From a virus (Duplodnaviria > Caudoviricetes), in IMG/VR virus record IMGVR_UViG_3300033074_001348, positions 13,313 through 77,312 of that record: a DNA stretch of 64,000 bases. One strand, written 5' to 3'. Below the pieces are notes generated by a model. The model saw only the letters and a program-made list of their open reading frames with translations, made no database searches and was not told the DNA's origin. Shown here one piece after another: positions 10,801 through 32,350 of this stretch. How positions within the stretch are numbered: position 1 is the first letter of the stretch; the number at the start of each line of letters is the position of its first letter. A program made the position numbers and the translations under genes.

Positions 10801-13800
10801 CACCAACACCTACTACCGATGAAAAAAGGAACGAAGAAGGGCGGCAAAAAAAATTGCTGACTAAGGAAGCGGAGGTGGCTACTAACATTCCCGAAGCACC
10901 TCCGCTCACTAAAGTATTCGTAGCTACATCAGGTAATACCATCGAAGAAAATGAGATGGGTAATTTGGTAGTAAAAGGTAAACGTGGAGGTATTCTCACA
11001 GGTAAGGAGCGTGGCAAGGCGATCCGTGAGTACCGAAAAGAAAAGATGACAGGCGGTAAGCGTGTCACATCTGCCGACTTAGAGCGTGATAACATTACAG
11101 AGCCCGAAGCAGTGCGCTACATTGCAGAGAATAGCACTTCTCCTGAGCAGTTATTGGAGATGATGGCGGTTGTAGAGCCAAAGGATGCTAAATTGAGTGG
11201 CAAAGACTCATTTATTGCCGACAACATGGACGCCATTAGTGCTGAGTCGTGGGCAAAGTTTGGCGACACCAACAGAATTACTCCTGACATTAAAAAGAAT
11301 TTTATCGGAAAGAATGGTACGGGGATAGATCAAATTGCTCAGGCAGCCTCTTACGCCATGAACCCAGAGGGTGACGGAACAGAGATTACGCCAAAGGACG
11401 TTATTGATTTTGTTGAGGCTAATCAGAAAGGAATTAAAGAGGCACTTAAAGCCGGTAATGAAGATATGAAAGTTCTGTACGATGCTTTCGTATCACTTAC
11501 GGGTCGTGCGCCTACACGGAGTATGATTGCTGATGTGAAAAAAGAAGGTGCTGACAAAAAGATAGAGGAAGATTTTGGTATGGAGCCAGAGCCTCAGGTC
11601 TTTTCAGTCAGTGATTCTCCTCAGATGAAAAAGAGGCGTTTCACTAAGCAGGTGATGGCCGATAAAGCCACTAAAGGAACCACCAAAGCCAAAATCACTG
11701 AAGATGCTATCTATTACTTGGAGCAGAAGAACGAAATGTCAGTTGGTGAGGCTAATAAAATATTGCAGGATGTAGGGATGGATGATGCTATTGCTATACT
11801 AAAAGATGTTGGCAATGGAATTAATGGCGGTGTGCGATCTGTTCTTGGTCAGGTAATTATCAAAGAATTAGAGGCAACAGGTAGGGTTGACATTGCTATT
11901 GACACTCTTAATTGGCTTACTGAAAAAGCAACTGACTCAGGACAATTCATACAGGCGTTTGCACTATGGGGTTATTTAACTCCGGCAGGGCAAATCAGAT
12001 CAGCAAAAAGATTAATTGATGAGCAGCGAAAAGATCAGTTTAAGAAAGATAATGAGAAAATTAAGAAAGCGAAACGCATCATTAGAACTGTACAAAAAGA
12101 AGCTATTGATGAAACGCTTGCAAATGTAGGAGTTGAAAAGAAAGCGGGTATTCGTGTAAATGCAAACACCAAAAGGTCAAGTCCGAGTTACGGGTCGAAG
12201 AATAAACTGATTACAAAAGAGAAGTATGAGAAGTGGAAAGCGAGTCGAAAAGGGAAGTTATTCTCCAATCCACTCGATCCTGAATTACTCCCTGCTGCCC
12301 TTTACCACCTTGAAGCCTCTGGTCGTAAATTTGCCGACTTCGCTGCCAACTTACTTGATGAATTTGGTTCTGCGGTACGTCCTTACATTAAGGATATGTA
12401 TGCTGCTGCCAAAGAAGAATTGGGCGGTACGGGTTATGATACGGTTGAGGATATGGATCGTGTTATTGCTGAAAGTCAAAATGAAGTATGGGCAGAAAGA
12501 GCGAAAAAAATTACTGCAAAATTTGATCGTGCTTTAAAGACTAAGAGTGAGAAGTTATTTAATGAAGCAGTAAGTGAATTGCAATCCCTACCTAACAAAG
12601 AGGAGTTATGGGAAAAGTATAAAAACTTTGCTGCGTCAAGACTTAAAAACCTACCTGCTGCACTTTTTGAAAAAGAGGCAAGAGAAAAACCTGCGCTGCA
12701 AAACTTCACTGATGAACTTGTAAGAGTGTTCCGTGAGAAAATGCAGGAGGCTATGCCGGAAAGCGAAAGTAAATCTACGCCTAAAAAGACTCGCAGTAGT
12801 ACGGAGATAATTGGCGATGCTTTTAAAAATAAAGAGAAGTACGCAGAGGTTTGGGAAGAAGCTCAAAAACAAATGCGGGAAAAGTTTACCGAGGATGAGT
12901 TGATTGAAATTGATAATTACTTCGGTGCAATACTCGATACTCCGTTCAGTCAAAAGCAAATCGAACGGGTTGTAAAAGACGGACTCAAGTCTATTGATAA
13001 AAAAGTAGCTGACATTGCTCGTGCGCACTTTACGCAGTATGATGCAACCAAGCAAACACTGATTGATAAATTAGTCAATGAGGCTGATCTTGATTTTATG
13101 CAGGCAAAAGAACTTGGTGATGCAATTAGTAAAGAGTTTGACAGGATCATGGCTTCCAAAAAGTCAGAGATACTGGAGCGAATGTTTCAGGAGAAGGTTA
13201 CGACCAAGAAAGGAAAAGTTAAGCACAACCTTGAAACAGAACTTGAGAAGCTACTGAACTTAGGCGCATTTAGCGACGAAGCTATTATGAATATGTGGGC
13301 AGATGCTAATGGCTACCCAAAACTTACTGAGGAGAATTACAAAGAACTCGAGCGTCTTGCTGCTATTGTTGTTGCTACTCCTGATGGGATGAAGAAATTC
13401 AAAGCAATACAGGACTTACTTAAATACCAAGCCACTATAAAAGGTGTGAATTGGAAAGAAGTTGGTATGGCGGTTTGGTACGCAAATATTCTCTCAGGTT
13501 ACAATACGCAGCTTGTTAATGCGGTGTCTACTGCTATTAATGTTATGAGTAATTTGATGGTAACTTCTGTTCGTACAAAACTCGGCAAAGGCGATAGGCG
13601 CATGGCGGTTAAAGGGCTTTATGATGGGTTTGCATCAGGGCTTCTTGTAGCAAAAGATGTATTGCAAACTGGGTATAGCCCAATATTTACAGGTAAGGTC
13701 GAGATGCCTTCCGCTCTTGAGATAAAACGTTTTATGGGCGGCAAATATAATCCTGCAAACTACTTGAAATTTGTTCGTAGAGTTATGGTTGCTACCGATG

Positions 13801-24228: not shown

Positions 24229-24711
24229 ATGGCAACAGACAGAAAGAAAATTATCGCTGAGTTTGGCGATCCGAGGGCAGACGAAAAGGCCTTTGTAAAA
24301 AAATGGATGGTGGTTTTTAATATCGGTAATCATTTTCCGTCACTACCGTTCAAAAAAGTTTATGTCAATTCGGTGTTGATACCACCAATTATTGAGACAT
24401 TCAAATTACTTTCCACAAGAGGTCTGCTTGGCGAGATCAAAAAATATGACGGCTGTTTTTTGGTTCGGTGCATCAGGGGTTATGAAAATCCGTGTGTCCC
24501 ATCTATTCATTCATGGGGCTTGGCGATTGATTTTAACGCATCAGACAACCCGCTTGGATTAAGCCGTGAGCAATGTATCAAAAAGGGATTAAAGCCGTTC
24601 TCAGAGGCATTTTTTCAGGTATGGAGAGAAACAGGTTGGGTGGTAGGTTATGACTTTAGCCGTAAAGACGGGATGCACTTTCAATGGACTAAGAAGTGGG
24701 ACACCGCTTAA
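24229..24711 (+). CDS. Endolysin, M15-family peptidase (160 aa)
   Basis: Zn-binding motifs SIHSWGLAIDFN and DGMHFQ. Confidence 0.85.
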   Translation: MATDRKKIIAEFGDPRADEKAFVKKWMVVFNIGNHFPSLPFKKVYVNSVLIPPIIETFKLLSTRGLLGEIKKYDGCFLVRCIRGYENPCVPSIHSWGLAIDFNASDNPLGLSREQCIKKGLKPFSEAFFQVWRETGWVVGYDFSRKDGMHFQWTKKWDTA

Positions 24712-24745: not shown

Positions 24746-24814
24746 TAATATCACGAACCTTTAACTGGTTGCAAATAAGCCTGTTGAAGATAAAGCTTCG
24801 TATATCTGATGTTA
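24746..24814 (+). repeat. 69-bp direct repeat copy 1 (attI-like site heading array A)
   Basis: Identical to 31155-31223; ends in GTTA exactly at the first cassette boundary (G24811). Confidence 0.85.
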
Positions 24815-24823
24815 TACACAACC

Positions 24824-25567
24824 TTAAAAAGACAGCGTTCCAATTGAAAGTTTTTGACTAATTCTATGGATTGCTTTGTCGTAATAAAATGTGTCTTTTT
24901 CAATTCCTGTAAGGTGCAAATTCATTTTATCCAATTTGTTTACCTTATCAACCGCCAACGCTATTGAACCACTACCAAAATGCGTATCAATGATTTTATC
25001 ACCATTGTTAGCATAGTTTTTCAAAAGCCATTCATAAAGCTGTATTGGTTTTTCGTTGGGGTGTATGCGTTCTTGCTTTTCTTTCATATTTTGCTGAAGC
25101 ATTCCGTGCCATTTCCATTTAAACTTTCTTACCGCTGTTTTAAATGAAGTCCAAGCAAGCTCACAATCGGCAAAATCATTGTTCCCGTTTTCTTTATCCC
25201 AAACTATCCAGCAACTACTATCAATAGGTAATTTTGAAATAAAATGATTTGCACCCCAAACAATTTGATTTTTAGAAATTCTGCGTAATTCATTCCAATA
25301 TTCAGATTCAGGAGCTGTTAAATCATTTCCTGAATAAGCCTTATAATCTTTGCTTTTTGCCATTACGCTACGAGTGTGATTTTTTGAGCCATCTTCGCCA
25401 ATTCCATACGGAACATCTACTATTGCTAAATCAAATTGTTTATCCTCAAAATCTCGCATTTTATCCAAGCAATCCGAAAGATATACGTCCAAAAAAGGCT
25501 GTGTATAACATCGGTTTGCCGTAATGGCGGTTGAAGTGCTACTATTGAGCTTTTGTGCTGTATTCAT
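24824..25567 (-). CDS. DNA methyltransferase, N6-A/N4-C beta class (cassette A1)
   Basis: DLAIVDVPYG catalytic motif variant, HPNEKP, and DTHFGSGS SAM motif. Confidence 0.85.
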   Translation of the reverse strand: MNTAQKLNSSTSTAITANRCYTQPFLDVYLSDCLDKMRDFEDKQFDLAIVDVPYGIGEDGSKNHTRSVMAKSKDYKAYSGNDLTAPESEYWNELRRISKNQIVWGANHFISKLPIDSSCWIVWDKENGNNDFADCELAWTSFKTAVRKFKWKWHGMLQQNMKEKQERIHPNEKPIQLYEWLLKNYANNGDKIIDTHFGSGSIALAVDKVNKLDKMNLHLTGIEKDTFYYDKAIHRISQKLSIGTLSF

Positions 25568-25636
25568 CTTTTCTACTTTTATTTAACTTTTGTACTAAAT
25601 TGTCCGCCACTAACGGCAAGCCGTGAACCGTTAGGC
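25503..25636 (+). repeat. attC-like site A1 (134 bp)
   Basis: GTATAAC-arm ggtttgccgtaatggcgg ... ccgccactaacggcaagcc-GTTAGGC. Confidence 0.8.
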
Positions 25637-25645
25637 GTAATGCCA

Positions 25646-26269
25646 TTAGCGTATCCATTCAATAGTTGGTTTGCCGACATAATCCTTGTCCCAAACATAC
25701 CAAGCATAAGCAATCATACCGCTATTCTTCATTTTTACCCCACCTTTGTATAAAGTAACTCGTTTGCTAAATTGGTAAACAGTTTTTAGAGGAAATTCCT
25801 TGTCCTGAAACATCTCATATCTGCTCTCACTTTCCAACCAAACAGTTTTTAAAAACATAGCAATCTTCTTTCTACCTTGCTTTTTTGCTTTCAATACAAA
25901 GTCAAGTGCTAATTTGTAAGGTGGGTTTGTAACTATGTTATCAGCAACTAAATCACTTTGCAAAAAATCAAGTTGTTCACCATATCCTCTATTTATCAAG
26001 TCGGTGCTAATAACTTCAAATCCTTTGTTTTTAAAAACTTCGCTTATATCTCCTTCGCCACAAGCACATTCCCAAATATTTCCGCTAAAAACTTCTCGTT
26101 TCAAAAGTTCTTCTACTGCATAAGGTGGTGTGGGGTAAAAATCCTCCGCTTCACGTTCTCCATTATTTCTGCTCGAACCAACTATTGATAGAGCTTTCGT
26201 GGAAGGCACTACGCCTAACACGGGTTTGGCAAAATTGCCGTTTTCGTTTTCAAATAAACTTTCTGTCAT
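25646..26269 (-). CDS. Putative adenine DNA methyltransferase (cassette A2)
   Basis: WECACGEG SAM motif and TNPPY catalytic motif. Confidence 0.8.
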   Translation of the reverse strand: MTESLFENENGNFAKPVLGVVPSTKALSIVGSSRNNGEREAEDFYPTPPYAVEELLKREVFSGNIWECACGEGDISEVFKNKGFEVISTDLINRGYGEQLDFLQSDLVADNIVTNPPYKLALDFVLKAKKQGRKKIAMFLKTVWLESESRYEMFQDKEFPLKTVYQFSKRVTLYKGGVKMKNSGMIAYAWYVWDKDYVGKPTIEWIR

Positions 26270-26338
26270 AATATCATCTTTTGTTTTTCAATTTAACTTT
26301 TGTGTTCGGCAACTTCGCCAAGCCCGATACCGTTAGCG
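26213..26338 (+). repeat. attC-like site A2 (126 bp)
   Basis: GCCTAAC-cgggtttggcaaaattgccg ... cggcaacttcgccaagcccg-GTTAGCG. Confidence 0.8.
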
Positions 26339-26356
26339 GTAATGCCAACAGACACC

Positions 26357-26857
26357 CTAAAATGGCAATCCATCGGACGGACTTTTATTGTCATCATAAT
26401 TTATTTTAGGCAACCTATCAGGGTTATCAAAAATATTTCCATCTACCTGCATATCACTACCGAAATAATCAATCATTGGAACTAAACTGCTATGGTTTTT
26501 GTAGTAAGAATTATCAATGCACCAACATCCAGTATCTTTATTGTAAACAACAGGATAATAACCAACAATTTTATTTCCTTCTTCGTCCGTTTCTTCATCT
26601 CTTAAAAAATCGCCTTCATAAATTAAGTTGCCAGCCCTATCTGAAACCATTGTGCAAATTGATATTCCAGTAGTATAGCTATCTACTAAAATATGGTCGC
26701 CAGTTCCAAGTTCTTCATTATCTCTTACTATGAAGTTTTGGTTTACGCCTCTATCGCAATTATTGTATAAGTCGCCAAAAACCCATAATCCGTTTGACTT
26801 TGCTCTGTAATGTGTATTTATCATTTGTTTAAATTTAATCATTTTAACAAGGCACAT
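26357..26857 (-). CDS. YopX-like protein (cassette A3)
   Basis: RAKSNGLWVFGDL...IYEGDFL...GNIFDNPD pattern of the YopX family. Confidence 0.7.
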   Translation of the reverse strand: MCLVKMIKFKQMINTHYRAKSNGLWVFGDLYNNCDRGVNQNFIVRDNEELGTGDHILVDSYTTGISICTMVSDRAGNLIYEGDFLRDEETDEEGNKIVGYYPVVYNKDTGCWCIDNSYYKNHSSLVPMIDYFGSDMQVDGNIFDNPDRLPKINYDDNKSPSDGLPF

Positions 26858-26859
26858 AC

Positions 26860-26990
26860 CGCTAACATAGTGTTGCCAAAATGGGGGCAGAAGTGCATTT
26901 AATGAACATTTGTACTGTGTTCAGCAGTAGTGCTTTTAATGGGTTTTTGTGCTATAAATCCCCCACTTCGGCAACACTCGACCGTTATGA
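26860..26990 (+). repeat. attC-like site A3 (131 bp)
   Basis: CGCTAAC-agtgttgccaaaatgggg ... ccccacttcggcaacact-GTTATGA. Confidence 0.8.
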
Positions 26991-27203
26991 GAAATGCTCA
27001 GACTGAACTTCCTCAATCAAGTAAAACTTCTCCCACATACTTTTTGCCCACTCTTCGGCTTGGTGTCTATGTTGAAACACCGCTATAATTTTATTACTCC
27101 CAATATCCAAACGTTCTGCATCTGGAATGACTGCAAAAGCACTTCTCATAACAGCCGTTTGCTGCAATGGCGGGTTCTGTGGTAAATTTGATGTTTCTTG
27201 CAT
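26985..27203 (-). CDS. Hypothetical protein (cassette A4)
   Basis: Starts in the loop of site A4; the stop TAA is the complement of the GTTA core at 26984. Confidence 0.6.
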   Translation of the reverse strand: MQETSNLPQNPPLQQTAVMRSAFAVIPDAERLDIGSNKIIAVFQHRHQAEEWAKSMWEKFYLIEEVQSEHFS

Positions 27204-27277
27204 TTTATTAAATTTTGTGGTTAAACGAAAGTCAGTGCTTGTAATCCGCCACTGGCAGCAATGCTTTTACGTTATGA
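27146..27277 (+). repeat. attC-like site A4 (132 bp)
   Basis: TCATAAC-ttgctgcaatggcgg ... ccgccactggcagcaa-GTTATGA. Confidence 0.8.
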
Positions 27278-27308
27278 GAAATTTTAAAAACCTTTCCCCC
27301 GCACCGTT

Positions 27309-27692
27309 CTAATCATCATCTTGCGTTGACAAAGAAAATGTTTCACCATCTTCAATATTCATAATTTTGACACCGCAAGAACCGTATTCAGCAATCCACA
27401 TTGGGGTATTTTCATCCATATAAAAATCACCGCCTTTGTATCCCGTAAAAGTTTGTCCTAAACATTCATTTTTTAGTTGTTCAACCAAACTTGCAACGGT
27501 TCTTGTTCCGCTTCCTTTTTCAAGTGCTAAATCTGAATAATATCCACGATATGAATGTGGTTCACATACGTTTTCAATTTCTTTGTCTTGTGGTAGTTTT
27601 TCAAGTTCTGAAATAAATCTACCAAGTGTCATTTGTGATAAAGAACGTTCTGCTCTCCATCCTTTGCTTAATTCATTAAATAATTCTTGCAT
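27309..27692 (-). CDS. Hypothetical protein (cassette A5)
   Basis: ORF track begins at GTG 27749; the ATG at 27692 (MQELF) has an A-rich leader and is the likelier start. Confidence 0.6.
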   Translation of the reverse strand: MQELFNELSKGWRAERSLSQMTLGRFISELEKLPQDKEIENVCEPHSYRGYYSDLALEKGSGTRTVASLVEQLKNECLGQTFTGYKGGDFYMDENTPMWIAEYGSCGVKIMNIEDGETFSLSTQDDD

Positions 27693-27740
27693 AATATTTT
27701 GTTTTTTAAATGCCCACCCTAAAAGGTTTTTAAAACTATC

Positions 27741-27834
27741 CCATAACACGGGTTTGGCAAAATGCCGCAGGACAGTTAGTGCTAAATTTCAAGTTTCAAG
27801 TAGCGGCACTTCGCAAAGCCCGAAACCGTTATGT
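27741..27834 (+). repeat. attC-like site A5 (94 bp)
   Basis: CCATAAC-cgggtttggcaaaatgccgc ... gcggcacttcgcaaagcccg-GTTATGT. Confidence 0.8.
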
Positions 27835-27846
27835 GAGATTGCTAAA

Positions 27847-28065
27847 TTATCGTTTATAATAATGTTTTCTAACACCTAAACCTTCTGATTTTAAATGCTT
27901 AAAATTTAATCTTTCTTTTAAGTTATCAAATTGTCTTGAGGTAATGCTGTGTTTTTTAATATCATTTGAATTTCTTAATTCATAAATAGTTCTTTTATTA
28001 TATTGTATCTGTACTAAAACATCATTATCTTCTAATAATTTTTCTAATTCTTTTATTGTCATCAC
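27847..28065 (-). CDS. Hypothetical protein (cassette A6)
   Basis: ORF fills the cassette body. Confidence 0.55.
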   Translation of the reverse strand: MMTIKELEKLLEDNDVLVQIQYNKRTIYELRNSNDIKKHSITSRQFDNLKERLNFKHLKSEGLGVRKHYYKR

Positions 28066-28091
28066 ATTTTGTTTTAAAAACCCACAACCTC

Positions 28092-28224
28092 ACATAACAA
28101 GTGTTTGGCAAAAAAGCGGGTTCGGTTATTAATTTAATGTTTGTTTTATATTTGAATGTTTAGTAATTAATCGGAAATTCCGTTTTTTCTTTCCGCTTCT
28201 TCGCCAAGCACTCGGACGTTACCT
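28092..28224 (+). repeat. attC-like site A6 (133 bp)
   Basis: ACATAAC-agtgtttggcaaaaaagcgg ... ccgcttcttcgccaagcact-GTTACCT. Confidence 0.8.
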
Positions 28225-28596
28225 GCTACCTTTCAGACGCTCAATTTCGGAAAGCAGACTATCAACGATTAACAGGCTTTTTTCAACCCACTCAACAGGC
28301 ACATCGTCCTCTAAAAATTTCTTATGGGTTTCAGTATAGTGGTCGTGGCTAATTAAACCAAGTGAACAAACCAGCCCTTTGCTATCAGGTGCAGTTAATG
28401 CCCAATGCTTCAAACTAAATTCCCTGCCAGTTCTTGAATTGACATAGGGCAATTCATAGCATTTATGCCACTTCCAACTATCAGGTAATTGATTTCTGAG
28501 TTTCATAATTTCCTCTACCGATAAGGCAGCAGGTAACACGGGTTTGGCAAAATCGGGGCTTCCGGCTTCATTTGAAATTATTTCTTTCTCTTTCAT
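28219..28596 (-). CDS. Hypothetical protein (cassette A7)
   Basis: The stop overlaps the GTTA core; the N-terminus reads through the half site (FAKPVL). Confidence 0.6.
   Translation of the reverse strand: MKEKEIISNEAGSPDFAKPVLPAALSVEEIMKLRNQLPDSWKWHKCYELPYVNSRTGREFSLKHWALTAPDSKGLVCSLGLISHDHYTETHKKFLEDDVPVEWVEKSLLIVDSLLSEIERLKGSR
28531..28558 (+). repeat. Half attC-like site A7 (left arm only)
   Basis: AGGTAAC-cgggtttggcaaaatcgggg, with no matching right arm or GTT core seen downstream. Confidence 0.65.
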
Positions 28597-28607: not shown

Positions 28608-28868
28608 TTATCTTGAATGATACGGCGACATATAAGGATATTTGTAAGTTATATAAGTATTAAAATCACAAGGCATGACACCAATAAACTGCGTAGGTTG
28701 AGAATCTTCATACTTACGCCTTTTATCAATAATTGATGCTATTTTTGAATTAACACCCATTAAATCGCCATCGTAAAATCGAACTAAAATATAGGGATTA
28801 GCAGCACACGCTTTCCTTAATTGACCTACTGTTAAAGTTTTCATCTCATTTATTTTAAACAACCCCAA
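28608..28868 (-). CDS. Hypothetical protein
   Basis: ORF; the real start is probably the internal MKTL. Confidence 0.5.
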   Translation of the reverse strand: MGLFKINEMKTLTVGQLRKACAANPYILVRFYDGDLMGVNSKIASIIDKRRKYEDSQPTQFIGVMPCDFNTYITYKYPYMSPYHSR

Positions 28869-28893
28869 AGCCAGAACGATGGGGGTGGGTTAG

Positions 28894-29169
28894 TTAGTAA
28901 TTTATTACAATTTCAGTTTCGGTAACTTCTTTTATTTTAGGTCGGGCGTTCCTTGCTTCAATTACACAAGGAACTAAAACCATCTCTTCATACCAAACAT
29001 CATCGTTTTTATTCATATTAAATCCCTTGTATCTATTGTCAGCACCAAACAAAGTAATATATTTTCCGTCATATTCTAAACGGTAATCACCTGCGTAATG
29101 CGGTAATATTGGTAGTCTTACTTCTTTCATAATTTTAGTATAAATAACAAACCCCCAAGCCAAAGACAA
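28894..29169 (-). CDS. Hypothetical protein
   Basis: ORF; the real start is probably MKEVRLP at 29130. Confidence 0.5.
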   Translation of the reverse strand: MSLAWGFVIYTKIMKEVRLPILPHYAGDYRLEYDGKYITLFGADNRYKGFNMNKNDDVWYEEMVLVPCVIEARNARPKIKEVTETEIVINY

Positions 29170-29183
29170 GAGGGCTTGTCGGG

Positions 29184-29603
29184 TTAGTCTTCGTTAAAAA
29201 AATCTTCTATATTAGGATTGTTATTCCAGTTTTCGATCTTACCGTTTTCATCAATTTTAACAACGATATAATCCCCGTAAGACTCTCGATATAAATCCAA
29301 TATATTGGGAACATAACCGTCTTTTGTAAGAACGGTATTACCTTCTGAATCCAATAAGTGGTAAATCCCATCATCGCAAACTTTGTAATGAACATCAGCA
29401 GTGACACCTTTCTTCCAATTTGTAATAATTCCAGAATCAATATCAATATTTAATTTCCATCGATCCATTTCTTTGCATGGGATTAAATCGCCATGTAAAT
29501 CATCGACTCCATTAATTGAGCCGTCTTCCCAGTAGCGTACACCTGCATCCACTAACAAGGTTTTAATTTCGACTTCCTTTTCGATTTTGATTTTTGCTTT
29601 CAT
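29184..29603 (-). CDS. Conserved phage hypothetical protein (139 aa)
   Basis: Globular acidic ORF (GVRYWEDG, HYKVCDDG) downstream of a promoter. Confidence 0.6.
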   Translation of the reverse strand: MKAKIKIEKEVEIKTLLVDAGVRYWEDGSINGVDDLHGDLIPCKEMDRWKLNIDIDSGIITNWKKGVTADVHYKVCDDGIYHLLDSEGNTVLTKDGYVPNILDLYRESYGDYIVVKIDENGKIENWNNNPNIEDFFNED

Positions 29604-29621
29604 AGTAAATGTATAAACAAC

Positions 29622-29656
29622 GAACCCCTCTAAGCCGGGAAGACAGAGAGGGGTTC
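29622..29656 (-). terminator. Hairpin/terminator-like element, one of three related copies (also about 28858-28893 and 29146-29186)
   Basis: Perfect 10-bp stem GAACCCCTCT/AGAGGGGTTC followed by GTTGTTT on the minus strand. Confidence 0.5.
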
Positions 29657-29719: not shown

Positions 29720-29757
29720 CAAATATACAAACAATTGTATAAGAAACAATACATTTG
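29720..29757. promoter_or_regulatory. Divergent promoter pair (TATATTTG minus at 29720-29727; TACATTTG plus at 29750-29757)
   Basis: Two TAnnTTTG boxes between divergently transcribed genes. Confidence 0.6.
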
Positions 29758-29771
29758 TAAAAAAAAATAAC

Positions 29772-31157
29772 ATGAAACTTAAAATCCTCGCAGCATCCTT
29801 TATTATCGGCTTGTCGGTTGTAACTTATAATGCAGTAAACTACGACCCCGTTCCATCCATTATAGAAGCACTCAGGGAAGGCAAGTCCGTAACGCTCGAC
29901 TCTGGGGTGGTTTACAATTTTACGGGCTATAAGAACCTCCCAGTAACATCGGAATTTAACTTGAATGGGGCAACTATTAAAGCCGATTCGATGCTCCAAG
30001 CCGAATTTAATGACAACCAATACTTATTTTTATTGGATGGCGGCTACATTCATTCTGGAGCAATTATCGGCGCATCAGGCAAGGTGTACAATGCTAAGGC
30101 GGGGTATTTTGGGGCTATTCAGGTAATGACGGGTGGTAAAATAAGGTCGGTAAACTTTAAGAATTGCGACAAATGGGCTATTCGGGTCTTTGGTGATCGA
30201 TGGTCACATAATGACACAACCTTTATTACATCATGCGTTTTCGATTCAATACCTCGTGACGGATCGGGATATGGTACATGGAATCAGCATGGTGTGGTTA
30301 TAGTCGATTCCTGTAAATTCAATTTCCTGCGTCATGCTTTTGATTGTGGTAGTGAAGGTAACTTAACGGTAATTCAAAACTGCGAGTTTCGTAATTGCTT
30401 TTACATTCCAATTCATCAGCATCGGTATGTAGGTGATTCGGTCGGGGTTGGATTGACGGTGCGTAATTGTAAGTTTTACGATACCTACATGCCCCTTGAT
30501 ATTGGATTGCCGTTTAAAGGCATGAACAGAATTGATAGCAACTATTTTGCCGGCAACTATATTGGTCGCATGGGTCGTGATACGATACCCATTGGCACAA
30601 ACTATATGAACGGTAAAGGCATGATATCTGCTCCTGAAATTATTGGAAGAAATAGCTATAAGGTGGGCGAGAAAATGTCACTAAAGATTGACAAGACTGG
30701 TTTTTGGAATAACGGTGTAACGAACAGGCAGACGACAACTACATTCAATTATCCAATGGTAAAAGTCTATAGCGTTCACACGGGTGGCATTGCTGACACC
30801 ATGACCGTTATTTGCTCTGATACGGGAATCTATACGTCCATGCGGGTTTTAGCAACCTGCGATATTGAATTTTGGAGTGGCGATAAAGCGGTTGGAGTGG
30901 TGAAAAAAGGAAAGGCGTATGACTATAAATTTTACTACTTCAAGGCGGATGTCAAGATCAAAATTAAAGGCAATCTTATAGGTGTAGATCGGGCGACATT
31001 CAACGTGGCAGACGGTTATAGGGCGTTACGGGTTCGTACGAATGTCGGGGTGCTGCATCTTGATAATCTATGCTACAACGGATGGTATGACACCTATGAG
31101 TTTGGACTTAAGACGAAGGTCAAGCAAGTGGGTGAGTGGGTGGAGGTCGGGAAATAA
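29772..31157 (+). CDS. Secreted parallel beta-helix (pectin-lyase-like) protein (461 aa)
   Basis: Signal peptide MKLKILAASFIIGLSVVTYNA; repeats such as VNFKNC, ITSCVF, VDSCKF, IQNCEF and VRNCKF. Confidence 0.7.
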   Translation: MKLKILAASFIIGLSVVTYNAVNYDPVPSIIEALREGKSVTLDSGVVYNFTGYKNLPVTSEFNLNGATIKADSMLQAEFNDNQYLFLLDGGYIHSGAIIGASGKVYNAKAGYFGAIQVMTGGKIRSVNFKNCDKWAIRVFGDRWSHNDTTFITSCVFDSIPRDGSGYGTWNQHGVVIVDSCKFNFLRHAFDCGSEGNLTVIQNCEFRNCFYIPIHQHRYVGDSVGVGLTVRNCKFYDTYMPLDIGLPFKGMNRIDSNYFAGNYIGRMGRDTIPIGTNYMNGKGMISAPEIIGRNSYKVGEKMSLKIDKTGFWNNGVTNRQTTTTFNYPMVKVYSVHTGGIADTMTVICSDTGIYTSMRVLATCDIEFWSGDKAVGVVKKGKAYDYKFYYFKADVKIKIKGNLIGVDRATFNVADGYRALRVRTNVGVLHLDNLCYNGWYDTYEFGLKTKVKQVGEWVEVGK

Positions 31158-31223
31158 TATCACGAACCTTTAACTGGTTGCAAATAAGCCTGTTGAAGAT
31201 AAAGCTTCGTATATCTGATGTTA
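31155..31223 (+). repeat. 69-bp direct repeat copy 2 (attI-like site heading array B)
   Basis: Identical to 24746-24814; ends at the GTTA core (G31220). Confidence 0.85.
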
Positions 31224-31232
31224 GCCGCAAGC

Positions 31233-31481
31233 CTAAGCGACATCGTAACTAATAGTTAGGTTTGACATTGCCTCAATTGTAAAAAGCAACTGACCTGCCA
31301 CATCATAACCATTGTAAACTGTTATCGTAAGGTCGTTATGATACCCTTTGCCGATAGTCTTTTCTTCTTCTTTAATTTCGTGTATCTTATCGCCAAATGC
31401 AGCATATTGGTACTTGTCGTTTACGGCAAAGTAAGTTGAGCCTTCGCCAGTTCCTTTTTCAATTGATTTTATTCGTTTCAT
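31233..31481 (-). CDS. Hypothetical protein (cassette B1)
   Basis: ORF fills the cassette body. Confidence 0.6.
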   Translation of the reverse strand: MKRIKSIEKGTGEGSTYFAVNDKYQYAAFGDKIHEIKEEEKTIGKGYHNDLTITVYNGYDVAGQLLFTIEAMSNLTISYDVA

Positions 31482-31509
31482 TTTTATTTGTGTTGTGAGA
31501 AAGGCCAGC

Positions 31510-31603
31510 GGCTAACAGCGGTTTTGCGTCAGGCGGCAGACAGTTGGTGCAAACTTGAAACATCCTATAAGCCGCCCGAACGCAAAGCCGCAAAACGTTA
31601 TCG
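31510..31603 (+). repeat. attC-like site B1 (94 bp)
   Basis: GGCTAAC-gcggttttgcgtcaggcggc ... gccgcccgaacgcaaagccgc-GTTATCG. Confidence 0.8.
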
Positions 31604-31933
31604 GCTATTTAGAAAATCCCAAAGTTCACCAGCATTTGACATTGGAATATTTTTACCATTATCTGTAACTTTTAAACGATAGTTTTCTTGTCCAAAATCT
31701 AATTCCCAACAGAAATACTCAATCCAACTTTGACCCATTGGACAAAGTGCAGTATCATTCATTGCGACTTGCAAAACTTCTAATAAAGCATTTTGCAAGT
31801 AATGATTTTTAGGTAATAGATTAGCTGTAAAACTTTCGGGAAACGCTTTGCCTAAATTTTCAGAAACAGAAATATCATATTTAATTTGTTCCTGTATTGC
31901 TTCAATTGATTTTATAAAAAGTTGTTTATCCAT
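31598..31933 (-). CDS. Hypothetical protein (cassette B2, gene 2)
   Basis: The stop overlaps the GTTA core at 31597; contains WIEYFCWELDFG. Confidence 0.6.
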   Translation of the reverse strand: MDKQLFIKSIEAIQEQIKYDISVSENLGKAFPESFTANLLPKNHYLQNALLEVLQVAMNDTALCPMGQSWIEYFCWELDFGQENYRLKVTDNGKNIPMSNAGELWDFLNSR

Positions 31934-32177
31934 TTTTATCTTCTTTTAAGTGGTTATATTGACCAGTAGCGTATTGGTGCAAGTTAGTTTCGTTGTATAG
32001 GCTACAAATACTTGACAATGCTTCTAACTCATCATTATTATTTTCAATCCATTCATCAATACTTTCTTCCTCATCAAAAGCATCTTTAACAGCAGCCTTT
32101 ACACCTTTTCTGACAAAGTTTTTTATTGCTCTTAAATCCGATTTTGTTAATGTTACATTTACATATTCTAATTCCAT
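31926..32177 (-). CDS. Hypothetical acidic protein (cassette B2, gene 1)
   Basis: Overlaps the next gene by 8 nt inside the same cassette. Confidence 0.55.
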   Translation of the reverse strand: MELEYVNVTLTKSDLRAIKNFVRKGVKAAVKDAFDEEESIDEWIENNNDELEALSSICSLYNETNLHQYATGQYNHLKEDKNG

Positions 32178-32219
32178 ATTTTGACATTTTAATTTTAAAG
32201 TTTACGACTTAAAAACAGC

Positions 32220-32350
32220 CGATAACAAGGGTTTGAACGCAAGTGGGGCAGATGTGATACTATCAACATCAGTGGTTCATTCATCATTTGTACTACTATC
32301 AACATTAGTGCTACAAATCCCCACCTGCGTCAAGCCCAAAAACGTTAAGT
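32220..32350 (+). repeat. attC-like site B2 (131 bp)
   Basis: CGATAAC-gggtttgaacgcaagtgggg ... ccccacctgcgtcaagccc-GTTAAGT. Confidence 0.8.

Follow-up and report, generated by a model that had tools for sequence, protein, structure and literature searches.

A seven-cassette phage array of a probable integron-like system, with hairpin sites that may double as translation start regions

In Vibrio superintegrons, inverted gene cassettes are mostly toxin-antitoxin cassettes with their own promoters. For clusters of attC sites lacking integron integrases (CALINs), a handful of phage-borne examples, in virulent phages, is on record (Qi et al. 2023, PMC9892861), and a single complete integron was reported in Bacteroidetes with IntegronFinder 2.0 (PMC9024848). 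Here, we analysed a stretch of 64,000 nucleotides (the window, to which all positions given without a locus name refer) from the Caudoviricetes record IMGVR_UViG_3300033074_001348 of IMG/VR (positions 13,313 to 77,312; the whole record has 77 kb and is rated complete). The window holds seven tandem gene cassettes (array 1, cassettes A1 to A7) at 24812-28596, with open reading frames (ORFs) at 24824-28596, separated by six full hairpin sites of 85 or 122 nt (S1 to S6) and one half site (S7). It is probable that this array belongs to an integron-like recombination system acting on hairpin sites, widespread in Bacteroidota and in their phages, in which the hairpin loops serve as start regions for the cassette genes.

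The array resembled the phage CALINs in its tandem cassettes, its imperfect hairpin sites with AAC/GTT cores, its complementary cassette ends, the exchange at G|TT, the lack of an integrase in this phage and the DNA methyltransferases among the cargo (PMC9892861). With six full sites and one half site in 3.8 kb, two more sites in a second array and no recombinase in the 77-kb record, it had the composition of a CALIN. Unlike in the phage CALINs, however, the genes were on the opposite strand (94% of the viral cassettes), the putative start codon and a leader lay inside the site, a bulge beside the right core mirrored the extrahelical bases of canonical attC sites, and the arms were strongly conserved in sequence. 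Compared with integrons in the strict sense, the complementary cassette ends and the G|TT exchange were present, and the sites were attC-like in being imperfect hairpins with AAC/GTT core boxes whose structure was kept while the sequence varied. The IntI-specific domain was found neither in the phage nor in the recombinase linked to related arrays (see below), the R''-L'' extrahelical bases and the two-sided central spacer were absent, the site asymmetry being mirrored relative to the recombinase/attI side, and the cargo did not consist of sense, promoterless ORFs read from the attI side. Since there was no IntI-type integrase, and since the site asymmetry was mirrored and the cargo inverted, the system is described here as an integron-like variant and not as an integron sensu stricto. 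Reading frames also run through structure-specific recombination sites where synthetic attC sites are placed in coding sequence; there the overlap is a design (Nivina et al. 2020, PMC7439510), whereas in the phage it is natural, recurrent and restricted to the N-terminus. No account of start codons inside phage attC sites, or of the pairing of recombinase and array described below, was found in the literature searched, which was incomplete and makes this weak evidence.

The ATG codons of three cassette genes lay in the hairpin loop, 56, 48 and 49 nt to the right of TAAC (A1, 25565-25567; A2, 26267-26269; A4, 27201-27203), and that of A7 (28594-28596) was to the right of the half site S7, at 57 nt from its core. 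If these codons are used, the left arm, the core and the flank would be translated as an N-terminal leader of 15-25 residues in A1, A2, A4 and A7. The arm was read as ...AITANRCYT in A1, FAKPVLG in A2 (whose leader ended in ...NGNFAKPVLGVVPS), PPLQQTAVMRS in A4 and FAKPVLP in A7, with the core G at codon position 2, 3, 1 and 3 respectively. The stop codons of A4 (26985-26987, in the S3 core) and A7 (28219-28221, in the S6 core) were the TAA complement of GTTA, and the stop of B2, a gene to the right of the array (28894-28896), fell in the GTTA at 28893-28896. The original prediction had placed these starts and stops in the same way and had given the same arm translations and, exactly, the same codon positions of the core G; all of this was borne out by the coordinates.

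The relationship between loop and gene was not restricted to this phage. Among dereplicated phage cassettes, a loop ATG open into the gene was present in the gene's own frame in 89 of 154 cases, whereas counting the two remaining frames of the same DNA gave 3 of 308; the earlier proposal that the leaders are in frame with the gene to their left was thereby upheld. The 40 nt preceding the loop ATGs were 50% A, with the consensus AAAATTAAAAAnAA-ATG. Unstructured A-rich initiation regions of this kind are used by Bacteroidota in place of a Shine-Dalgarno sequence. The frame statistics and the A-rich consensus support the further proposal that each cassette would bring its own translation start. 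A loop ATG open through the arm was found in 75% of the long viral sites and in 24% of the chromosomal ones; degenerate half sites like S7 often retained the arm, the frame and the ATG; and in the GenBank annotation of the cultured Flavobacterium phage mumin6-1, a methyltransferase gene starts inside such a hairpin. The site RNAs were predicted to fold at -33 to -44 kcal/mol (z -2.9 to -4.5), the centroid structures leaving the loops open, and an mRNA hairpin displaying the start codon in its loop is plausible on the basis of these models.

The sequence of the leaders looks incidental and may be set by the DNA site rather than by the needs of the protein, because the same arm was read in different frames and because A2 homologues had varied leaders or none. 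One identical 18-mer arm gave FCQTRV in 15 cassettes and FAKPVL in 18. All three frames were used by leaders (core at codon position 1 in 45, position 2 in 6 and position 3 in 37), the rarest being that in which GTTA followed by A or G gives a stop. The conserved core of A2 began at residue 25, and many close homologues of 184-185 aa started exactly there, leaderless, in ordinary phage operons free of hairpins, while cassette-borne homologues carried varied leaders; A2 had no ATG at the position where the leaderless homologues begin. In three sites the left core was CATAAC (27149-27152, 27744-27747 and 28095-28098), which puts an ATG on the core on the gene strand (GTTATG); from this ATG, A4 could be read in frame as an alternative product of 54 aa, and in S5 and S6 the ATG did not match the frame of the gene.

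About 280 related sites were found across more than 100 viral contigs, and such hairpins were also present in cultured Flavobacterium phages. One left-arm 18-mer alone occurred in at least 120 viral contigs and at least 120 Bacteroidota genome records. An energy scan of the 1.23 Mb of fetched viral DNA gave 308 TAAC...GTTA hairpins at -16 kcal/mol or better, while control cores gave 12. The sole invariant positions among 74 diverse aligned sites were TAACA, one A and CGTTA, and compensatory double changes were seen at all 17 stem pairs; no Rfam family matched the sites at E up to 1. The loops fell into two size classes of ~35 and ~65 nt. In 239 of 281 sites, a bulge of 4-5 nt on one side separated the stem from the right (GTTA) core, and each site therefore has a direction. 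The wobble pairs were mixed as to the choice of strand: one position favoured the top strand, where T·G pairs were frequent and the bottom strand would have an A·C mismatch, and the remaining wobbles favoured the bottom strand (26 vs. 8). The DNA folding energies likewise gave a mixed preference. On the top strand, a word like TTTGTGCTAAAT was directly repeated 2-4 times in the loops of most long sites (25532-25602, 26889-26959 and 27175-27243 in the window), in phages as well as on chromosomes; the chromosomal recombinase described below may bind these repeats through its N-terminal extension.

The 6 nt beside the cores were complementary across the gene at 5 or more of 6 positions in 66% of 140 viral cassettes, vs. 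3% within the site, and all seven cassettes of array 1 showed complementarity across the gene and not across the hairpin, the classical signature of integron cassettes, whose exchange occurs inside one core. The polarity of the cassettes was derived from the asymmetry of the sites, calibrated on Bacteroidota chromosomal arrays downstream of an Xer-type tyrosine recombinase, and gene orientation was scored on the longest ORF of each cassette. In the recombinase-linked chromosomal arrays, 41 cassettes were sense and 14 antisense (n = 55); in viral loci, 8 were sense and 129 antisense (n = 137). Counts based on the flanks agreed with these figures. The calibrated direction makes the plus strand of the window the top strand, with the head of the array at the attI-like end, and all nine cassettes of the window (seven in array 1, two in array 2) were antisense. 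The antisense arrangement, anticipated in the original prediction, is a real difference between phages and chromosomes within one system and no artefact of naming. One cassette on a short contig filed as viral (L037:274-1398) was 77% identical over 1.1 kb to a sense chromosomal cassette (L257:11788-12903), reflecting either exchange between the two pools or a chromosomal fragment misfiled as viral. This was the only match between phage cassettes and those of recombinase-linked chromosomal arrays, in a sample too small to call the pools separate.

The breakpoints between related loci pointed to what moves. In all nine groups of loci sharing only the right-hand gene, the hairpins were unrelated and identity began at GTTA. 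Where only the left-hand gene was shared, the hairpin was kept up to GTTA in about 6 of 12 groups; in the others, the hairpins had diverged with compensation or had been replaced at the TAAC side. A 403-bp cassette repeated in a chromosomal array always kept its right hairpin while its left neighbour varied, and the A5 gene-plus-hairpin unit had other right neighbours in L020, L022, L024, L051 and L078. The A2 gene had other neighbours in L032. Because the breakpoints fell at GTTA, a mobile unit composed of the gene and its start-side hairpin is supported, with the hairpin apparently exchanged or remodelled on occasion. The right-gene groups and the 403-bp cassette were thus as expected from the proposed unit of gene plus right hairpin, and so were about half of the left-gene groups. 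Co-segregation of leader and gene, also expected, held as a general rule in relatives and not absolutely, as close A2 homologues had different leader types. GTTA breakpoints were also found between hairpins without sequence similarity (L111 vs. L053, L119 vs. L081 and L015 vs. L026), which argues against plain homologous recombination.

At least 30 sites, all in one direction, formed one array of a 4.43-Mb uncultured Bacteroidia chromosome (L256 and L257, G002:C1:4366000-4405999), in which the first exchange point (GTTA) lay 92 nt after the stop codon of a gene for a 368-aa tyrosine recombinase (L257:16435-17541, minus strand). The same layout of recombinase followed by array was seen in four further arrays, namely a second array of the same genome, a Sphingobacteriaceae metagenome-assembled genome, the isolate Flavobacterium silvisoli RD-2-33 and one more genome; the loci with this layout were L260, L261, L262, L264 and L295-L311. 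In 301 genomes sampled across the phylum, 17 close homologues of the recombinase were found, 14 of them with sites downstream; seen from the recombinase gene, the short arm came first in 30 of these 33 sites. The chromosomal arrays look like a phylum-wide integron-like platform that would be missed by IntI-based criteria. The 368-aa protein was above the threshold for NF040815 (“site-specific tyrosine recombinase/integron integrase”, 227 bits) and reached 206 bits for TIGR02249, vs. a cut-off of 265, matching only model positions 3-176 and 239-315. It fell below this integron-integrase threshold because the IntI-specific inserted domain was missing: it had ~20 residues where IntI4 (2a3v) has ~67, and it carried an N-terminal extension of ~90 residues.

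In this layout, with the recombinase upstream of and co-directional with up to 30 or more cassettes and the first exchange ~90 nt on, the Bacteroidota arrays were like the sedentary chromosomal integrons with an “inverted integrase”, and they differed in the Xer-like recombinase with its N-terminal extension and without the IntI-specific domain. The minority of antisense cassettes in the chromosomal arrays must bring their own expression signals, like the inverted cassettes of Vibrio superintegrons, and the array of G002 included an antisense 110-aa ORF starting in a hairpin loop. Unlike in Vibrio superintegrons, inversion was the rule in phages, the site loop would give the start codon, and the sites had no promoter motif. 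At the head end of their arrays, four viral loci carried a related Xer-type recombinase of 267-298 aa that shared 35-42% identity with the chromosomal protein (L017:2872-3675, minus strand; L025:6297-7193, L132:4183-5016 and L043:1596-2480, plus strand); these genes were located beyond the head and were co-directional with the antisense cassette genes. A mechanism of the HUH/IS200-IS605 type was considered and dropped: the Y1 transposase (PF01797) was absent from the phage, and the arrays were linked to a tyrosine recombinase instead.

For transcription, a scan on the minus strand for the Bacteroidota-type promoter motif (TTG...TAnnTTTG) gave intergenic matches only at 29727 and 35106, corresponding to the positions named beforehand (29720 and 35099). 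The nearest match upstream of the B and A genes was a candidate -7 box at 29720-29727 (minus strand; TATATTTG, with TTG upstream). On the gene strand, TAnnTTTG was absent from the hairpins of array 1 and present in 5 of 249 loops overall, and the idea that each cassette has its own canonical promoter was dropped on these grounds, non-canonical phage promoters being possible. As there was no promoter word in the hairpins, read-through from the right is the simplest model; judged from the motif, it would put the head-proximal cassette last in the transcript. The newest cassette would be farthest from the promoter only if the 69-bp head of the array, described below, is the insertion point that it is presumed to be.

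Taken as a mechanism, each cassette would run from TTA through a short flank, the gene and its complementary flank into the TAAC hairpin as far as G, with exchange at G|TTA. The enzyme is probably a tyrosine recombinase of the Xer type supplied by the host or by another phage, because this phage encodes none. On chromosomes, cassette genes point away from the recombinase gene and are followed by their hairpin. In phages, the opposite coding strand puts a hairpin in front of each gene, and its A-rich loop would act as the translation initiation region. Transcription would most likely run leftwards from the promoter at ~29727, through B3 to B1 and then A7 to A1.

Several observations weigh against this interpretation. 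No tyrosine recombinase was detected in the 77-kb record, the right end of array 1 was a half site, contrary to a simple insertion model, and some genes, including close homologues of A2, had different hairpins, so that exchange or replacement at the TAAC side also occurs. A short site of the same family, P12002L_attC1, is flanked by two minus-strand methyltransferase genes in the locus of Polaribacter phage P12002L (L259, 30008-30056). Of six phage sites assayed with class 1 IntI1, it alone was not recombined, no verified recombinants being obtained; for cloning, the HattCI prediction had set its orientation (PMC9892861), which is opposite to the polarity derived here. Finally, in-frame internal starts were available in A1 (TTG 25492), A2 (GTG 26221 and 26209), A4 (ATG 27149) and A7 (GTG 28539 and ATG 28506), and a start at TTG 25492 would give A1 a typical methyltransferase N-terminus. 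These internal codons, together with the ~40% of phage cassettes (A3, A5 and A6 included) that clearly start outside the hairpin and the common leaderless versions of the A2 protein, raise the alternative that the true starts are internal or at the core (TTG, GTG or ATG) and that the open loop frames are untranslated by-products of stop-poor arms. We consider this unlikely: such by-products would not explain why loop ATGs open through the same arms almost exclusively in the frame of the gene, why a conserved A-rich stretch precedes them, why they are three times commoner in phage than in chromosomal sites, why A2 has no ATG where its leaderless relatives begin, or why degenerate half sites so often retain arm, frame and ATG.

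The polarity could also have been mis-assigned, the cassettes being classical ones with their own hairpin to the left on the plus strand and a start borrowed from the hairpin of the neighbour. The TAAC/GTTA cores and the complementarity across genes are symmetric under reverse complement, the HattCI orientation of the P12002L site agrees with such a reading, and canonical attC sites have the longer arm first, which here would be the minus strand. This possibility is nevertheless very improbable, as the hairpin was unlinked to the gene at its GTTA side in 9/9 comparisons, both arrays open on the left with an identical head ending exactly at GTTA, in every recombinase-linked chromosomal array the short arm comes first as seen from the recombinase, and a borrowed start would not keep its frame in 58% of cassettes. 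Still less credible is the explanation of the hairpins as regulatory or structural repeats (terminators, repetitive extragenic palindrome-like elements or promoter stem-loops of the T4 PeSL type) between genes shuffled by homologous recombination. The arms are indeed highly conserved, as the spread of the 18-mer illustrates, some breakpoints fell within the conserved right arm (L032 vs. L061), and the hairpins would fold in mRNA too; but repeats of this kind would account neither for GTTA breakpoints between dissimilar hairpins nor for core flanks complementary across each gene, for the strict co-orientation of the sites and their adjacency to a tyrosine recombinase gene, or for covariation that keeps the structure while the arm sequences change. 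The integron-like system with start regions in its hairpin loops thus stays the preferred interpretation.

In the literature consulted, integrons are counted as rare in Bacteroidetes; the hairpin family described here is present in at least 120 viral contigs and at least 120 Bacteroidota genomes, and the recombinase tied to the arrays would escape the standard IntI criteria. One sequence could be used as recombination site and ribosome entry region, both suggested by sequence patterns, and as coding sequence if the loop ATGs are used. Gene callers and attC finders will mis-orient such sites, as HattCI did with P12002L_attC1, and the N-terminal leaders should not be taken for functional domains. 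This route may let phages exchange accessory genes, anti-restriction methyltransferases among them. A broader proposal is made tentatively, and we hold it to be rather doubtful: that Bacteroidota phages and hosts share one cassette system, driven by an Xer-type recombinase without the IntI domain and used with opposite coding polarity, in which the phage site doubles as initiation region and N-terminus and the polarity keeps the two pools functionally separate. If true, a cassette captured by a phage array from a host, or the other way round, would be antisense to local transcription and therefore silent.

Array 1 followed directly on the plus-strand structural genes and a peptidase-like gene, which end at 24711; minus-strand ORFs follow from 24824. 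Its presumed attI-like end was the 69-bp head at 24746-24814 (plus strand), whose GTTA is at 24811-24814. The head folded weakly (-5.8/-7.7 kcal/mol) and had no match in the phage collection; the 14 nt following its GTTA were complementary to the flank preceding the TAAC of S1. In other phages the heads of arrays often ended in (G)TA|GTTA, comparable to ...TAAGTAA|GTTA on chromosomes, while hairpin sites always had C|GTTA.

The cassettes, all on the minus strand, carried the following genes. A1 (24812-25630) encoded an N6/N4 DNA methyltransferase (24824-25567) with PF01555 and phrog_23224 matches from residue 28 on, and its hairpin S1 spanned 25506-25633 (TAAC from 25506, GTTA from 25630) with the ATG in the loop. 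A2 (25631-26332) encoded a DNA methyltransferase (phrog_799; 25646-26269), again with the ATG in the loop of its hairpin (S2, 26216-26335; cores from 26216 and 26332). A3 (26333-26984) encoded a YopX-like protein (26357-26857) starting outside the stem, 9 nt to the left of the core of S3 (26863-26987; cores from 26863 and 26984). The 72-aa product of A4 (26985-27271; gene 26985-27203), with its ATG in the loop of S4 (27149-27274; cores from 27149 and 27271), matched no known family in a profile comparison of the cassette proteins, and neither did those of A6 and A7. The gene of A5 (27272-27828) had a phrog_12889 match (27309-27692) and a hairpin of the short class (S5, 27744-27831; cores from 27744 and 27828); its frame was open through the arm (HFAKPVL), but the short loop had no ATG, and the start was most likely in the cassette body (ATG 27692; GTG 27749 overlaps the core). 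A6 (27829-28218; gene 27847-28062 or 28065) also had an internal start, as did A3, and carried the hairpin S6 (28095-28221; cores from 28095 and 28218). A7 (28219-28596, gene over the same positions) ended the array with the half site S7 (28534-28560), in which the TAAC core and the left arm, the leader frame and the ATG were kept and the right arm and right core were missing.

A megablast search with 12 kb gave a 114-nt methyltransferase stretch as its sole match, and relatives of the flanking endolysin were merely 37-46% identical. The second array (31155-32347, minus strand) began with a copy of the head (31155-31223) identical to 24746-24814 up to GTTA and divergent beyond, and comprised two cassettes with the hairpins S8 (31513-31600) and S9 (32223-32347) and minus-strand genes with internal starts. 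Between the two arrays, G+C-rich stem-loops were located just upstream of the starts of B1, B2 and B3 (28860-28896, 29145-29196 and 29612-29655), with T-rich and A-rich stretches after them. They were not accepted as marking cassettes: TAACA...CGTTA cores were present in 29145-29196 only, and the other two resembled terminators or processing hairpins.

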